This document shows, one piece after another, positions 15,750 through 64,000 of a DNA stretch of 64,000 nucleotides. The stretch is from Escherichia coli (GTDB lineage: Bacteria > Pseudomonadota > Gammaproteobacteria > Enterobacterales > Enterobacteriaceae). Every line of letters begins with the position of its first letter. Positions within the stretch are counted from its first letter, which is position 1. Under the pieces are notes generated by a model. That model did no database searches, had not been told where the DNA came from, and saw nothing but the letters and a program-made list of their open reading frames with translations. The translations under genes and the position numbers were made by a program. The stretch lies in assembly GCF_045037415.1 (NCBI RefSeq), contig NZ_CP173438.1. The stretch is one strand, 5' to 3'.

Positions 15750-17213
15750 TTAAAGCAACACCACGGGCATCCACAGTAAGCCGGTAATCACCAGCAATAC
15801 GAGGAATATCAGCCCAAAAATCGCCCCCAGTCGCCAGTAATCCGCCGTTGGCAGATAACCACTGCCGTAGTAAATCGGACTGGGTCCGGTGGCGTATGGT
15901 GTAAGAATGCTCCCCAGACCAATTGCCGCACCAACCATCAGGCAGAACACCGGCAGCGGGATTTCCGGCATCGCCAGCGCGGCGGCAATCATCATCGGTG
16001 CGAGAGCGGAGGTATACGCTGTGGCGCTGGCAAAAAAGTAGCGCAGCAGATAAAAGACCACAATCAACGCCACCATCACTATCGTTGGCGAATAACCGCT
16101 TAAGCTGCCTGCTAACAGTTTGCCAAACCAGCTAATAAAACCGGTGTTGTTGAGTCCGGTAGCGAGGGTGATAAGCGAGGCCAGCCAGAAGAAAACGTTC
16201 CACGCCGCTTTATTACTGACAATGTCGTCCCAACTGATAATGCGCAGAAGCAGCATCAGCGCCACCACGCTGTAACCGACCATCGCGGCATCGATATAAT
16301 CACCGCCAAAAATCCACAACACCAGTGCGCCTACCATCAGCCCCAGCATCCGTTTTTCACGCGAACAGAGCGGGCCCATTGCCTGCAGTTCCGTCTCTGC
16401 CCAGCGCGGCACCTGATCGCCAGACTTCAGTACCGGCGGGTACAGCACGTAAGCCAGCCAGGGAACCAGCAAAACCAGTAAAATGCTGAGCGGCAACATC
16501 CCGAGGAACCAGTCGCCCCAGCTTAGCATGGCGTGAGATGCGCTTTTCATCAGTCCAATTAACAGCAAATTTGGAGCCATCGCCGTCAGGAAAATGGCGC
16601 TGGTCACGCAGTCGGCAACAATCCCCATCCACATGATGTACGAGCCAATGCTGCGCGAACTGCTGTCGTTTGGTTGTGATTGATAGAGCGGTGGCAGGTT
16701 ACGGATGATGGGATAGATAATCCCCGCACCACGCGCCGAGTTGGACGGTGTTACAGGCGCGAGTATCAGCTCGGAGAACATCACTGCATAGCCGAGAAAC
16801 AGCGTGCGATGCCCCATTTTTTTCACCAGAATCAGCGCGATGCGACGTCCAAGCCCGGTTTTTTCATAGCCCGTACCAAACATAAAGGCGGCGAAAATAA
16901 GCCAGATAACTGAATTAGAAAAACCAGAAACCGCCCAGGAGAGGGATTTGGCGGTGAACTTAAAACCTGGCTGGGCGAGCTGCTCCGGGCTAAACAGCAG
17001 CCACGGCGAAAGAATGGCGATGATGGATATACCCACCATCGCCACCACGGCACCCGGCACGGGTTCGAGGATCAGTCCAACGATCACGCCAGTAAAAACG
17101 GCAAAGTAGAGCCAGGTATGACTCTCCAGCCCTGCGGGAAGCGGAAGTAGAGCAATAATGGCGATGACCGCCAGCGGCGCAAGGTATCGCCACCATTCAG
17201 TGGAAGGTTTCAT
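15750..17213 (-). CDS. ttdT: L-tartrate/succinate antiporter (DASS family)
   Basis: 487-aa polytopic membrane ORF MKPSTEWWRYLAPLAVIAIIALLPLPAGLESHTW..., downstream of ttdAB. Confidence 0.93.
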   Translation of the reverse strand: MKPSTEWWRYLAPLAVIAIIALLPLPAGLESHTWLYFAVFTGVIVGLILEPVPGAVVAMVGISIIAILSPWLLFSPEQLAQPGFKFTAKSLSWAVSGFSNSVIWLIFAAFMFGTGYEKTGLGRRIALILVKKMGHRTLFLGYAVMFSELILAPVTPSNSARGAGIIYPIIRNLPPLYQSQPNDSSSRSIGSYIMWMGIVADCVTSAIFLTAMAPNLLLIGLMKSASHAMLSWGDWFLGMLPLSILLVLLVPWLAYVLYPPVLKSGDQVPRWAETELQAMGPLCSREKRMLGLMVGALVLWIFGGDYIDAAMVGYSVVALMLLLRIISWDDIVSNKAAWNVFFWLASLITLATGLNNTGFISWFGKLLAGSLSGYSPTIVMVALIVVFYLLRYFFASATAYTSALAPMMIAAALAMPEIPLPVFCLMVGAAIGLGSILTPYATGPSPIYYGSGYLPTADYWRLGAIFGLIFLVLLVITGLLWMPVVLL

Positions 17214-17260
17214 CGTGTTATGCCTGCGAAAAAGGAGAGGGGCGAGCCTCTCCGTGAGGG

Positions 17261-61928: not shown

Positions 61929-62178
61929 TTTTTTAACCTCAAGGTGAGACGTTTGCCGACTATAGTACGTCACAGAGCGGTACGGTGAAATTAGCAAAAT
62001 GTGCAAAGTCTTTTGCGAATTTAGCAAAAGTCTGATCTTTCTCTGATTCACCGATGCGGGATAAATATTTTCTGAAAATGACAATACTTAAATCAACTTC
62101 CCATAAGCTCCCACAGGAGAGATGTATTATGCAAATGATACAGGAGTTTTTCGGAAAAAATGATTATGGAGAATATAT

Positions 62179-62658
62179 ATGTCAAATATGATATACTTAT
62201 CAATTAAAGGGAAAATACAAGGTTTGATCTCTGAGGGTTGTGGTTCGTATGCATCTATTGGTAATAAATATCAAATAAATCATGTGGATGAAATTTTTGT
62301 TTTACAGTTCGACCATTCTTTAAGTCGAGAGTATAATGTAGTGCATCACCCCATAAAATTTTACAAGCCAATAGATAAATCCTCCCCTTTATTAAATGCC
62401 GCTCTTTCTGAAAATGAAGAGTTATCAGCTGTATTTAATTTTTATAGAATTAATTCTGGCGGTTGTATTGAAAGGTTTTACACAATTGAATTGCAAGGAG
62501 CACATTTATCGAATATTCTGACATGTTATCCACACTCAATTACACATGCGGGTAATCAGCCGGAAGAGGTCATTGTTCTTAATTATAAAAATATAACATG
62601 GAAGCACCATATCGCGAGTACGGAATCATATAGTTGTTGGGAAGAAAGGATTTTTTAA
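62179..62658 (+). CDS. hcp: Hcp/TssD-family type VI secretion tube protein, orphan copy
   Basis: 159-aa ORF. Whole-length pattern match to Hcp: IYLSIKG..QG.I...S.....DEI.VL.FDH....H.PI.F.K.IDKSSPLL..A....E.L.A.F.FYR.N..G....FYTI.L.GA.LS.I....EEV.L.Y..ITW.H......SCWEER. SD GGAGA upstream. Confidence 0.85.
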   Translation: MSNMIYLSIKGKIQGLISEGCGSYASIGNKYQINHVDEIFVLQFDHSLSREYNVVHHPIKFYKPIDKSSPLLNAALSENEELSAVFNFYRINSGGCIERFYTIELQGAHLSNILTCYPHSITHAGNQPEEVIVLNYKNITWKHHIASTESYSCWEERIF

Positions 62659-62660
62659 AT

Positions 62661-63371
62661 ATGAAAAGCGATCTCACTATAAAAAATAGATATTGTACAA
62701 TTCCACAAGCGAAGTTCCGTAAATGGGATGAAATGGACGTTTTACTCTGGAAGTTAGGAAAAAATGATTCGCGTCGCCGTTCAGGAGTATATTATTTAAA
62801 TGCTTATAAAGATGCATATGTACAATATAATAGAGACAAAATAATTAAATATGCATACGCCGCTGGAATTCGTCCAGAGTTACTGGGCGGCGTGGCCTGG
62901 ATTGAGTCAGGAGGTATGCCTGAAAATTATAAGTTTCAGATATATGAAACAAAAAGAATGATCGGATTGTTAGATATGCCTGAAAATAAAACATCATTTG
63001 GCTCAATGGGTATACAAATACGAACCGCAGCGATTACTCTAGGTCTAGACCCTTCAGAATTAACTACCAGAAATCAGTTAGAGTTAGCGACATGCCTAAT
63101 GGAGGATGATTTTACCTTTCAAATTGCTGCTACTTATTTAAGAGATCTTGTTCTTTTTGATTATCCCTCTTCGGCAACACTGTATATGACGAATGAGCAG
63201 TATATTATGGCTGGTATTAGATATAATCGTGGTGTTGAACGAGATTTGGGTTTTTTTATTTGTTTAATTAATAATTTGCCTGCACGTGATACAGATGATT
63301 ATAAATTCATCTCTTATGGTATGAGGTTGTTAGAGATTAGAGAACATATCAAAAAATTGATTAATGAGTAA
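62661..63371 (+). CDS. Hypothetical 236-aa protein with SLT/lysozyme-like motifs; candidate Hcp-borne peptidoglycan-targeting effector
   Basis: The track starts at TTG 62634. ATG 62661 lies 2 nt after the hcp stop, with AAAGGA upstream. No signal peptide. Motifs: VAWIESGG (E82, codon 62904-62906), FGSMGIQI (63000-63017), IRYNRG (63219-63233). Confidence 0.5.
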   Translation: MKSDLTIKNRYCTIPQAKFRKWDEMDVLLWKLGKNDSRRRSGVYYLNAYKDAYVQYNRDKIIKYAYAAGIRPELLGGVAWIESGGMPENYKFQIYETKRMIGLLDMPENKTSFGSMGIQIRTAAITLGLDPSELTTRNQLELATCLMEDDFTFQIAATYLRDLVLFDYPSSATLYMTNEQYIMAGIRYNRGVERDLGFFICLINNLPARDTDDYKFISYGMRLLEIREHIKKLINE

Positions 63372-63377
63372 TCAGAT

Positions 63378-63710
63378 ATGTTAAAAAAACAACTACTATC
63401 AATATTTGAAGCACTATTATATATAATGCTTACTTATTGGTTAATAGATTCTTTTTTTGCTTTCAATAAGTATGACTGGATGCTTGAGTCGGGAGACAAT
63501 ATTTGCAGTATACCTTCTGTTTCAGGCGAAGATCGTATATTACAAGCAATGATTGCAGCATTTTTTCTTCTGACACCACTTATTATTCTTATCTTAAGAA
63601 AACTCTTTATGCGGGAAATGTTCGAGTTTTGGCTATATGTATTCTCGCTCGTTATTTGTCTGGGTTGTGGTTGGTGGCTTTTTTGGGGACGGTTTATATT
63701 TTGCTATTAG
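63378..63710 (+). CDS. ygiZ: 110-aa three-TM inner membrane protein YgiZ; candidate immunity protein
   Basis: ATG lies 6 nt after the preceding stop. Hydrophobic helices LSIFEALLYIMLTYWLIDSFFAF, ILQAMIAAFFLLTPLIILIL, FEFWLYVFSLVICLGCGWWLFW. Position next to qseC matches remembered K-12 ygiZ. Confidence 0.75.
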   Translation: MLKKQLLSIFEALLYIMLTYWLIDSFFAFNKYDWMLESGDNICSIPSVSGEDRILQAMIAAFFLLTPLIILILRKLFMREMFEFWLYVFSLVICLGCGWWLFWGRFIFCY

Positions 63711-63714
63711 TAAA

Positions 63715-63748
63715 GTCTATGAGAGTCGTTTTAACGGCTCTCATAGAC
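63715..63748. terminator. Bidirectional hairpin between ygiZ and qseC
   Basis: GTCTATGAGAG-12 nt loop-CTCTCATAGAC, an 11-bp perfect stem. Confidence 0.6.
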
Positions 63749-63755
63749 AGAGAAG

Positions 63756-64000
63756 TTACCAGCTTACCTTCGCTTCAAATCCACCTTGTTTCGCATTCCC
63801 AAAATCAACATTCATGCCATGCAATTTGGCGATTCGCTGGACAATCGATAGCCCAAGTCCACTGCCGGTAGCGGTTTGTCCGGGTGGGCGATAGAAGCGT
63901 TCGCCAATTCGCGCCAGTGCCTCTGGTGTCACACCAGGGCCGTTATCCCTCACGATGAAATTATCGGCATTCAGCGTGACGTCTACCACGCTACCTTGTG
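63756..64000 (-). CDS. qseC: Sensor histidine kinase QseC, C-terminal part only (5-prime end right of the window)
   Basis: Reads ...NFIVRDNGPGVTPEALARIGERFYRPPGQTATGSGLGLSIVQRIAKLHGMNVDFGNAKQGGFEAKVSW (HATPase_c G1/G2 boxes). The frame is open to the window edge. Confidence 0.9.
   Translation of the reverse strand, partial: QGSVVDVTLNADNFIVRDNGPGVTPEALARIGERFYRPPGQTATGSGLGLSIVQRIAKLHGMNVDFGNAKQGGFEAKVSW

Follow-up and report, generated by a model that had tools for sequence, protein, structure and literature searches.

A mobile Hcp-linked gene cassette between mdaB and qseC of Escherichia coli as a candidate toxin/immunity module, with YgiZ (DUF2645) as the proposed immunity protein

Small cassettes in which an hcp gene is followed by an effector gene and its immunity gene are known from type VI secretion systems (T6SSs), and a similar cassette, consisting of hcp, a gene for a protein of 236 amino acids (aa; ORF2) and ygiZ, is situated between mdaB and qseC in the 64,000-nucleotide stretch of Escherichia coli DNA analysed here (the window). 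The order of hcp, small effector and immunity gene, with Hcp as chaperone or carrier, is shared with hcp-tae4-tai4 of Salmonella SPI-6 and Enterobacter cloacae and with the hcp islands of Pantoea (PMC9796082). Those modules belong to T6SS clusters or adjoin them, and their products are amidases, pore-formers or LprI-neutralised lysozymes, whereas the present type of cassette forms an island of its own or is carried by plasmids, and its toxin is unrelated and paired with DUF2645 as the proposed immunity. The cassette also resembles Hcp-ET, in which Hcp is fused to a C-terminal toxin (Ma et al. 2017, cited in 10.1101/2024.03.05.583533), and the PAAR/Rhs polymorphic toxins in having an orphan hcp locus of Enterobacteriaceae and a toxin with downstream immunity, but unlike in Hcp-ET, Hcp and toxin are separate polypeptides divided by a stop codon and a 2-nt spacer. 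Additional Hcp paralogues of extraintestinal pathogenic E. coli (ExPEC) have been described in avian pathogenic (APEC) and neonatal meningitis (NMEC) strains, in which Hcp1, Hcp2A and Hcp2B specify effectors under H-NS control (PMC5874247). These are encoded in the T6SS1/T6SS2 clusters (hcp2B with vgrG2, DUF2169 and xmtU/xmtV), and the Hcp between mdaB and qseC is a different, undescribed paralogue; its equation with APEC Hcp1/2A/2B was rejected, since those are cluster-encoded and have other partners.

Regarding the effector, ORF2 has no sequence similarity detectable with a profile against the PDB to Tse3 (Tge1), which together with Tsi3 belongs to the H1-T6SS of Pseudomonas aeruginosa, or to Tge2 of the Tge2/Tgi2 pair of P. 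protegens, and it is shorter than Tse3 (236 vs 408 aa). The proposed immunity protein has three transmembrane (TM) segments, whereas Tse3 and Tge2 are inhibited by periplasmic soluble proteins or lipoproteins, and a dedicated Hcp and mobility are features of the cassette not shared by Tse3/Tsi3 and Tge2/Tgi2. ORF2 gave neither an HMM nor a profile-profile match to Slt70, MltE/EmtA, MltC, MltD (PF01464) or goose-type lysozyme, and compared to the family-1 lytic transglycosylases it has a longer motif spacing, with an insertion of ~25 residues modelled at low confidence, and ~45 extra N-terminal residues with conserved W22/D26/W30. The protein has no export signal or lipobox and is therefore no housekeeping autolysin. 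The published lysozyme-like and SleB-like T6SS effectors (PMC9796082, PMC11148199) were considered as possible equivalents and rejected, as they have other domains and immunity families or come from work confined to specialised effectors. A description of this Hcp, of the ORF2 family or of an immunity role for YgiZ/DUF2645 was not found in the full-text literature (subscription journals are outside its coverage), in agreement with an earlier note on this DNA, made from the sequence alone, whose writer was not aware of a functional description of the pair. The cassette is a new effector/immunity family within the known Hcp-linked T6SS cargo and peptidoglycan-glycosidase effectors, and not a new kind of system. 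Its three genes are the following.

62179..62658, + strand: hcp/tssD paralogue, 159 aa, proposed effector carrier (TIGR03344, PF05638)
62661..63371, + strand: effector candidate, 236 aa, no signal peptide, lysozyme-like/SLT-fold domain with putative catalytic Glu82 (fold and conservation)
63378..63710, + strand: ygiZ, 110 aa, DUF2645, three-TM inner-membrane protein, proposed immunity (PF10840, hydropathy, context)

The genes are separated by spacers of 2 nt (hcp stop TAA 62656-62658, ORF2 ATG 62661) and 6 nt (ORF2 stop TAA 63369-63371, ygiZ ATG 63378), and the same three coding sequences are annotated by RefSeq in a genome of 99.9-100% identity. Every gene coordinate given in the earlier note was correct. 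The first protein is Hcp/TssD over its full length, as had been proposed: it matches TIGR03344 with 198.8 bits (cut-off 58.9; residues 1-157/159) and PF05638 with 3.5e-20 (73 bits, cut-off 23.5), and its matches in the PDB are Hcp3, V. cholerae Hcp and others at ~1e-20. The comparative evidence presented below makes it very likely that the cassette is a toxin/immunity module of contractile injection systems.

Conservation of the toxin/DUF2645 pair

A word-indexed search with ORF2 reached only 34 clusters, every one of them labelled 'hypothetical', from Escherichia, Citrobacter, Pectobacterium, Erwinia, Serratia and Chania. When 1.84 billion representative proteins were searched with a profile, 375 homologues (clusters at 50% identity) were obtained, 246 of which had E <= 1e-10, and in many of the 375 the ORF2 domain is the C-terminal portion of a longer protein. 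When ten such longer proteins were scanned against Pfam, the N-terminal module was PAAR in one (P0038), Rhs repeats in one (P0171) and eCIS_core/DUF4157 in four (P0083, P0121, P0151 and P0158), and one protein combining DUF4157 with the ORF2 domain is encoded in an operon beside a tube gene of a contractile injection system (CIS). The exchange of one C-terminal domain among delivery modules for contractile injection is a signature of polymorphic toxins, and because of its C-terminal fusion to PAAR, Rhs and eCIS_core/DUF4157 the ORF2 domain is, judged by domain architecture, a polymorphic-toxin domain. If this is true, a toxin domain without a Pfam model becomes an annotated family of ~375 clusters that serves as cargo of T6SSs (Hcp-linked, PAAR, Rhs) and of extracellular CISs (DUF4157). 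The only protein seen in which Hcp and toxin are fused (P0002, JGI metagenome, 325 aa) joins Hcp residues 1-100 to ORF2 from residue 12 by an in-frame deletion; it was rejected as a true Hcp-toxin fusion, since it is an artefact of the internal deletion, with the last third of Hcp missing.

The complete Hcp-ORF2-DUF2645 triad was found at more than 20 loci in unrelated contexts in at least nine enterobacterial genera (Escherichia, Citrobacter, Pseudocitrobacter, Buttiauxella, Pectobacterium, Erwinia, Serratia, Chania and Rahnella). Every examined Hcp-linked locus has the same order, an Hcp of 159 aa, a toxin of 234-246 aa and a three-TM protein of ~98-113 aa, encoded by genes that overlap or nearly overlap, and throughout the nine genera the third gene encodes DUF2645 or a three-TM protein of the same size. 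The triads of Citrobacter, Pseudocitrobacter and Buttiauxella are chromosomal, that of Pectobacterium is positioned between pagP and an EamA gene and that of Chania beside integrase and transposase genes, while in Serratia the triad is present on F-like conjugative plasmids and in Rahnella on a megaplasmid. Within 10 kb of the triad, the examined loci showed no T6SS core gene. From this synteny, the triad can be regarded as a conserved mobile unit. The pairing of the toxin with DUF2645 also survives when the delivery module is a different one: the next gene downstream of a PAAR-fused toxin encodes DUF2645, its start codon overlapping the stop codon of the toxin gene, and an N-terminally extended toxin is followed by a gene with a weak DUF2645 match. 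As expected of an effector with its immunity, the toxin gene adjoins hcp and is followed by a small gene in an arrangement conserved across taxa, and its domain is common with PAAR- and Rhs-fused specialised effectors.

Compared with the E. coli counterparts, Hcp retains 54-76% identity across the loci and ORF2 55-73%, but YgiZ only 29-64%; faster divergence is usual for immunity proteins. In Pectobacterium sp. B2J-2 hcp has been lost and the toxin gene is frameshifted, and in Serratia sp. L9 only fragments of hcp and the toxin gene are left, the ygiZ homologue being intact in both. Because of the conserved synteny, the Hcp-independent pairing, the faster divergence and the retention after toxin loss, YgiZ is most likely the immunity protein of the ORF2 toxin.

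Other competition genes were observed close to some of the triads. In Chania multitudinisentens a Pesticin-domain protein and an LprI-like partner are encoded 3 kb downstream of the triad (L008:14287-15314), and on the Serratia plasmid CP074138 a pore-forming colicin and a microcin-family gene are located near it (L011:17638-19132), which suggests 'weapon islands'. Serratia sp. H1w has two divergent full triads (L020 and L024), whose toxins share 63% and 56% identity with that of E. coli; this is consistent with diversifying effector/immunity specificities.

Within E. coli, 5,426 complete genomes were surveyed. The full cassette was present in 1,261 of them (23%) and ygiZ in 4,598 (85%), so that three states occur at one locus: the full cassette, immunity only (ygiZ without the cassette, as in K-12; about 61%) and empty (as in O157:H7 and E2348/69; about 15%). 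This makes the locus a clean natural setting in which to study how effectors are lost while immunity is kept. In K-12-type loci the two blocks of homology are separated by 131 bp unrelated to hcp or ORF2, and for this reason K-12 was rejected as a simple deletion derivative. The ratio dN/dS within E. coli was 0.12 for hcp, 0.11 for ORF2 and 0.25 for ygiZ, the orphan K-12 ygiZ compared to the window allele gave 0.23, and the range across all three genes was 0.06-0.25; by this measure all three genes are under purifying selection and none is drifting. In one strain (1449), an IS1 insertion splits hcp into two annotated tssD fragments. If YgiZ indeed is the immunity protein, K-12 ygiZ and DUF2645 would gain a function, that of a T6SS immunity orphaned in most strains, the ~15% of complete genomes without ygiZ would be predicted to be sensitive, and an unrecognised antibacterial effector would be added to the phylogroup B2 ExPEC including ST131.

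Putative active site of ORF2 and topology of YgiZ

Profile and structure searches, suggested in the earlier note for all three proteins, identified Hcp and DUF2645 by profile and connected ORF2 to known enzymes by fold only. ORF2 has no match in Pfam, NCBIfam or PADLOC, and its N-terminus lacks a hydrophobic stretch. An AlphaFold2 model built on 26 family sequences is all-helical (pLDDT 73.9, pTM 0.75) and has a lysozyme-like alpha-helical fold. In a Foldseek search with the model, MltE accounted for all ten best matches, and the best structural matches were by a wide margin enzymes that cleave glycan strands. Among ~130 diverse homologues (131 sequences), Glu82 is 100% conserved, and high conservation was also seen in the motifs T-S-x-G-x4-Q (T111 93%, S112 100%, G114 97%, Q119 98%) and R-Y-N-x-G (R187 93%, Y188 94%, N189 93%, G191 99%). 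The order of the glutamate and these two motifs matches that of the SLT motifs ES / GLMQ / AYNxG. According to fold and motif order, ORF2 is probably a divergent lysozyme-like enzyme, and it is likely that Glu82 functions as its general acid. Of the earlier description of ORF2 as an SLT-like protein without a signal peptide, the absence of the signal and the likeness at the level of fold and motifs stood, and the likeness at the level of sequence profiles did not.

A connection to phages was also considered. With phrog_11932, a PHROG of unknown function, ORF2 gave a match of 5.7e-28 (profile residues 9-189), and it has weak fold matches in BFVD to LT_GEWL proteins and endolysins, but with tblastn no relatives were found in 50,697 phage records (INPHARED) or in IMG/VR, and a phage origin was rejected. 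YgiZ had no PHROG match below E = 0.7, and no phage genes flank any examined locus, which leaves the loci unlike a holin/endolysin cassette. The sequences behind phrog_11932 may stem from mis-called prophage regions or eCIS-like loci.

The third protein, named ygiZ, DUF2645 family protein, in RefSeq, matches PF10840 over residues 13-109 (6.3e-11, 43.2 bits, cut-off 25) and has three hydrophobic segments, and its earlier description as a small polytopic membrane protein was correct. A word-indexed search with YgiZ did not extend beyond Escherichia, Shigella, Citrobacter and Salmonella and yielded no remote DUF2645 contexts. By the positive-inside rule, the N-terminus is predicted to be cytoplasmic and both the loop 28-53 and the C-terminus periplasmic. 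The most conserved part of the family is not the TM helices but the acidic loop NKYDWMxExGDxxCSIP (residues 30-46), and both the Cys of the loop and a conserved C-terminal Cys are predicted to be periplasmic, so that a disulfide may join them. K-12-type YgiZ (L003:2348-2680) is 92% identical to YgiZ of the window (9 differences) and has Gly in place of the conserved Asp41 in the loop motif GDxxCSIP, and the specificity of this orphan allele for the toxin might have been altered or lost. Overexpression of ygiZ in BL21 has been harmless and improved growth under solvent stress (PMC7181518). Transcription of K-12 ygiZ is activated by BglJ-RcsB, termed an H-NS antagonist (PMC3950696), which is the regulation expected for AT-rich foreign DNA, and it is likely that the island of 34% G+C carrying the cassette is silenced by H-NS.

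Delivery, proposed mechanism and alternative readings

The genome most similar to the window carries a T6SS cluster. From position 286 to 64000 the window is collinear with E. coli 21AR0275 (NZ_CP187203.1 654,285-718,491) at 99.99-100% identity, with one IS1 copy, present in 21AR0275 and missing from the window, as the sole break. The only T6SS cluster of 21AR0275, with tssA-M, is found at metV, ~320 kb from the cassette. The tssM::ISEc12 insertion, traced to one event in a clade C ancestor, marks ST131 clade C/H30 (PMC10711316), and because of the match to 21AR0275, whose metV cluster has this insertion, the window is considered core chromosome (ebgA to qseC) of an ST131-like phylogroup B2 strain. 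Aligned along its whole length, the orphan Hcp shares 43% identity with tssD2, the Hcp encoded at the end of the T6SS-1 clusters of E. coli. The metV cluster of 21AR0275 additionally has three vgrG genes, with an M23 peptidase, Tle1 and a canonical SLT-domain effector candidate.

The cassette probably functions as a mobile 'Hcp-cargo' module of type VI secretion in which the operon supplies its own Hcp paralogue. The orphan Hcp would bind the 236-aa cytoplasmic toxin, presumably in or on the hexamer ring, and deliver it into an adjacent Gram-negative cell by way of a T6SS whose genes lie elsewhere in the genome; there the toxin, with its predicted lytic-transglycosylase/goose-lysozyme fold and Glu82 as general acid, would cut the glycan strands of peptidoglycan in the periplasm. 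The acidic loop of YgiZ, probably disulfide-tied and periplasmic, would bind the toxin and block it and protect the producers and their kin, and strains without hcp and the toxin gene (K-12 and most E. coli) would keep ygiZ as an orphan immunity gene. The earlier proposal of a self-contained Hcp-effector-immunity module served by a distant T6SS is well supported on comparative grounds, by synteny, fusions, pairing, the faster divergence and the retention of YgiZ and the metV T6SS cluster; what we infer is the loading on Hcp and the export by a T6SS, the reaction catalysed and its location in the periplasm, and neutralisation by YgiZ. Hcp-dependent delivery and peptidoglycan cleavage taken together, as the full mechanism, are in our opinion more probable than not.

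Several observations weigh against this mechanism. Regarding the enzyme, Pfam SLT PF01464 was found in 0/26 family members even at E <= 10, hhalign comparison of 26- and 162-sequence alignments to MltD and to a T6SS-linked SLT protein gave a probability <1%, the 26-sequence profile found nothing at E <= 10 beyond two spurious matches among all PDB chains (Tse3 and Tge2 included), and the model is of medium confidence, residues 1-40 and 85-115 being poor. The known immunity proteins of T6SS peptidoglycan glycosidases, Tsi3 and Tgi2, are soluble or lipoprotein periplasmic proteins and not polytopic. Regarding delivery, the identity between the orphan Hcp and that encoded in the metV cluster is no more than 32% over 107 residues, and tssM of NZ_CP187203.1 is split by ISEc12 (L014:17421-23340; 1,045-1,051 kb), which inactivates the cluster. 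ST131 possesses no T6SS region besides the metV cluster and lacks a second tssM (PMC10711316). In strain A29 the cassette is intact, and of the two T6SS sites inspected there, metV is empty and aspV has no more than a remnant of T6SS-1. The points on delivery, together with the disrupted (strain 1449) and deletion-fused (P0002) alleles and the greater similarity of the Hcp to the tssD2 type, would fit a stranded relic in the genome of the window, where the module is no longer fired and only the protection by ygiZ against the toxin of other strains matters. However, the three ORFs are intact in the window and in most of the 1,261 genomes, and the low dN/dS of hcp and ORF2 within E. coli speaks against decay. 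Since the tssM insertion is traced to one event in a clade C ancestor (PMC10711316), a trace of it in the cassette is not necessarily to be expected yet. We regard the relic as rather unlikely.

A true T6SS effector-immunity module could also have another target than mature peptidoglycan, such as lipid II, other undecaprenyl-linked glycans, nascent strands at the synthases or the membrane itself. This would account for an immunity protein embedded in the inner membrane, a position that makes a substrate close to the membrane, for example lipid II, conceivable. In contrast, the enzymes with the best fold matches to ORF2 cleave glycan strands, an invariant Glu and motifs in SLT-like order agree with the active site of a lytic transglycosylase/muramidase, and the conservation of YgiZ peaks in an extramembrane loop, as fits the blocking of a soluble periplasmic enzyme, making the other targets unlikely. 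Quite improbable is also a lysozyme-fold toxin that acts on a membrane-bound glycan intermediate (lipid II) and is delivered by heterologous T6SSs or by an undescribed Hcp-based route, an idea raised because the cassette is intact although the T6SS loci inspected in the clade C-like 21AR0275 and in A29 are broken or absent, occurs on conjugative plasmids and always has a polytopic immunity; if it were true, ygiZ would be a species-wide resistance in 85% of E. coli. A signal-less lysozyme-like enzyme beside a three-TM protein of ~110 aa furthermore resembles a holin/endolysin pair, and the PHROG match and the weak BFVD folds point in the same direction, so that the two proteins could act on the producing cell itself, ORF2 as an endolysin with YgiZ as a class-I holin, or ORF2 as an accessory peptidoglycan hydrolase opening the wall for T6SS assembly. 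Phage lambda S/R and, in T6SS assembly, MltE or TagX would be the analogues. Yet phage genes are missing from the surroundings and relatives from the phage records, the ORF2 domain is fused to the toxin delivery modules PAAR and Rhs, ygiZ occurs alone under purifying selection in about 61% of E. coli genomes, the order of enzyme before membrane protein and the Hcp linkage are unlike lysis cassettes, and T6SS core genes do not adjoin the triad at any examined locus. Overexpressed ygiZ moreover improves growth (PMC7181518), unlike a holin, and we hold a self-acting pair to be very improbable.

The remnant in A29 has a layout of its own worth recording next to that of the cassette. At aspV (L039:15793-17722), the T6SS-1 end encodes the Hcp tssD2 (160 aa), a hypothetical protein of 304 aa and then ykfM, a K-12 gene of unknown function, which is the same layout as in the cassette; K-12 may have kept, in ykfM, a second orphan immunity gene.

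The island, its insertion site and neighbouring features

The cassette is carried by an AT-rich island, the boundaries of which were obtained by BLASTN against the empty site of O157:H7, where homology to the window ends at 62033 and resumes at 63756 and the gap between mdaB and qseC is 109 bp. The island and its non-coding features are the following.

62034..63755, no strand assigned: island, the entire insert of 1,722 bp from the mdaB upstream region to the qseC stop codon (BLASTN boundaries and G+C)
61929..62178, + strand: divergent mdaB-hcp intergenic region, presumed cassette promoter (inferred; GGAG 8-11 nt 5' of the hcp ATG)
63715..63748, no strand assigned: hairpin between the convergent ygiZ and qseC (15-bp stem with one G-U pair, 4-nt loop)

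The G+C content of the island is 33.9% compared to 50.6% in the remainder of the window (hcp 32.7%, ORF2 34.7%, ygiZ 33.3%), which confirms the earlier estimate of roughly one third by eye, and the island is the lowest-GC 1.7-kb stretch of the window. Considering its composition and the empty site, the island is regarded as horizontally acquired. Neither T6SS core genes nor VgrG or PAAR genes are annotated in the stretch of NZ_CP187203.1 that matches the window, and the only mobile-element genes there belong to the IS1 copy missing from the window; this annotation of a near-identical genome bears out the claim that the window has no T6SS core, VgrG, PAAR or mobility gene.

In the presumed promoter region, a consensus scan found no strong sigma-70 site in 61929-62178, and the intergenic region through 62106 is common to the window and K-12-type loci according to BLASTN. 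The hairpin downstream of ygiZ has a folding energy of -24.9 kcal/mol (z = -7.9; 0/200 shuffles fold equally well) and is kept in K-12-type loci and missing at the O157 empty site. Its position had been given correctly before, but the 11-bp stem described then was too short, the computed stem of 15 bp being stronger. As the + strand lacks a T-run, the hairpin was missed by a terminator scan; its probable role is that of a terminator or an RNA-stabilising element for one or both of the ygiZ and qseC transcripts.

Elsewhere in the window, the IS1 difference to 21AR0275 coincides with a 9-bp overlap of the alignment blocks (39177-39185), which is the size of an IS1 target duplication; in 21AR0275 the IS1 copy interrupts a yqi-type fimbrial subunit gene, and the window has no IS1 there. 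The second lowest-GC stretch of the window is located at ~38.4-38.5 kb (37%). In the near-identical genome an internal stop interrupts ttdT, the gene of the L-tartrate/succinate antiporter, and the annotation lists it as a pseudogene (L004:15465-16928); the window, 99.995% identical at the corresponding positions (~15750-17215), probably shares this stop.

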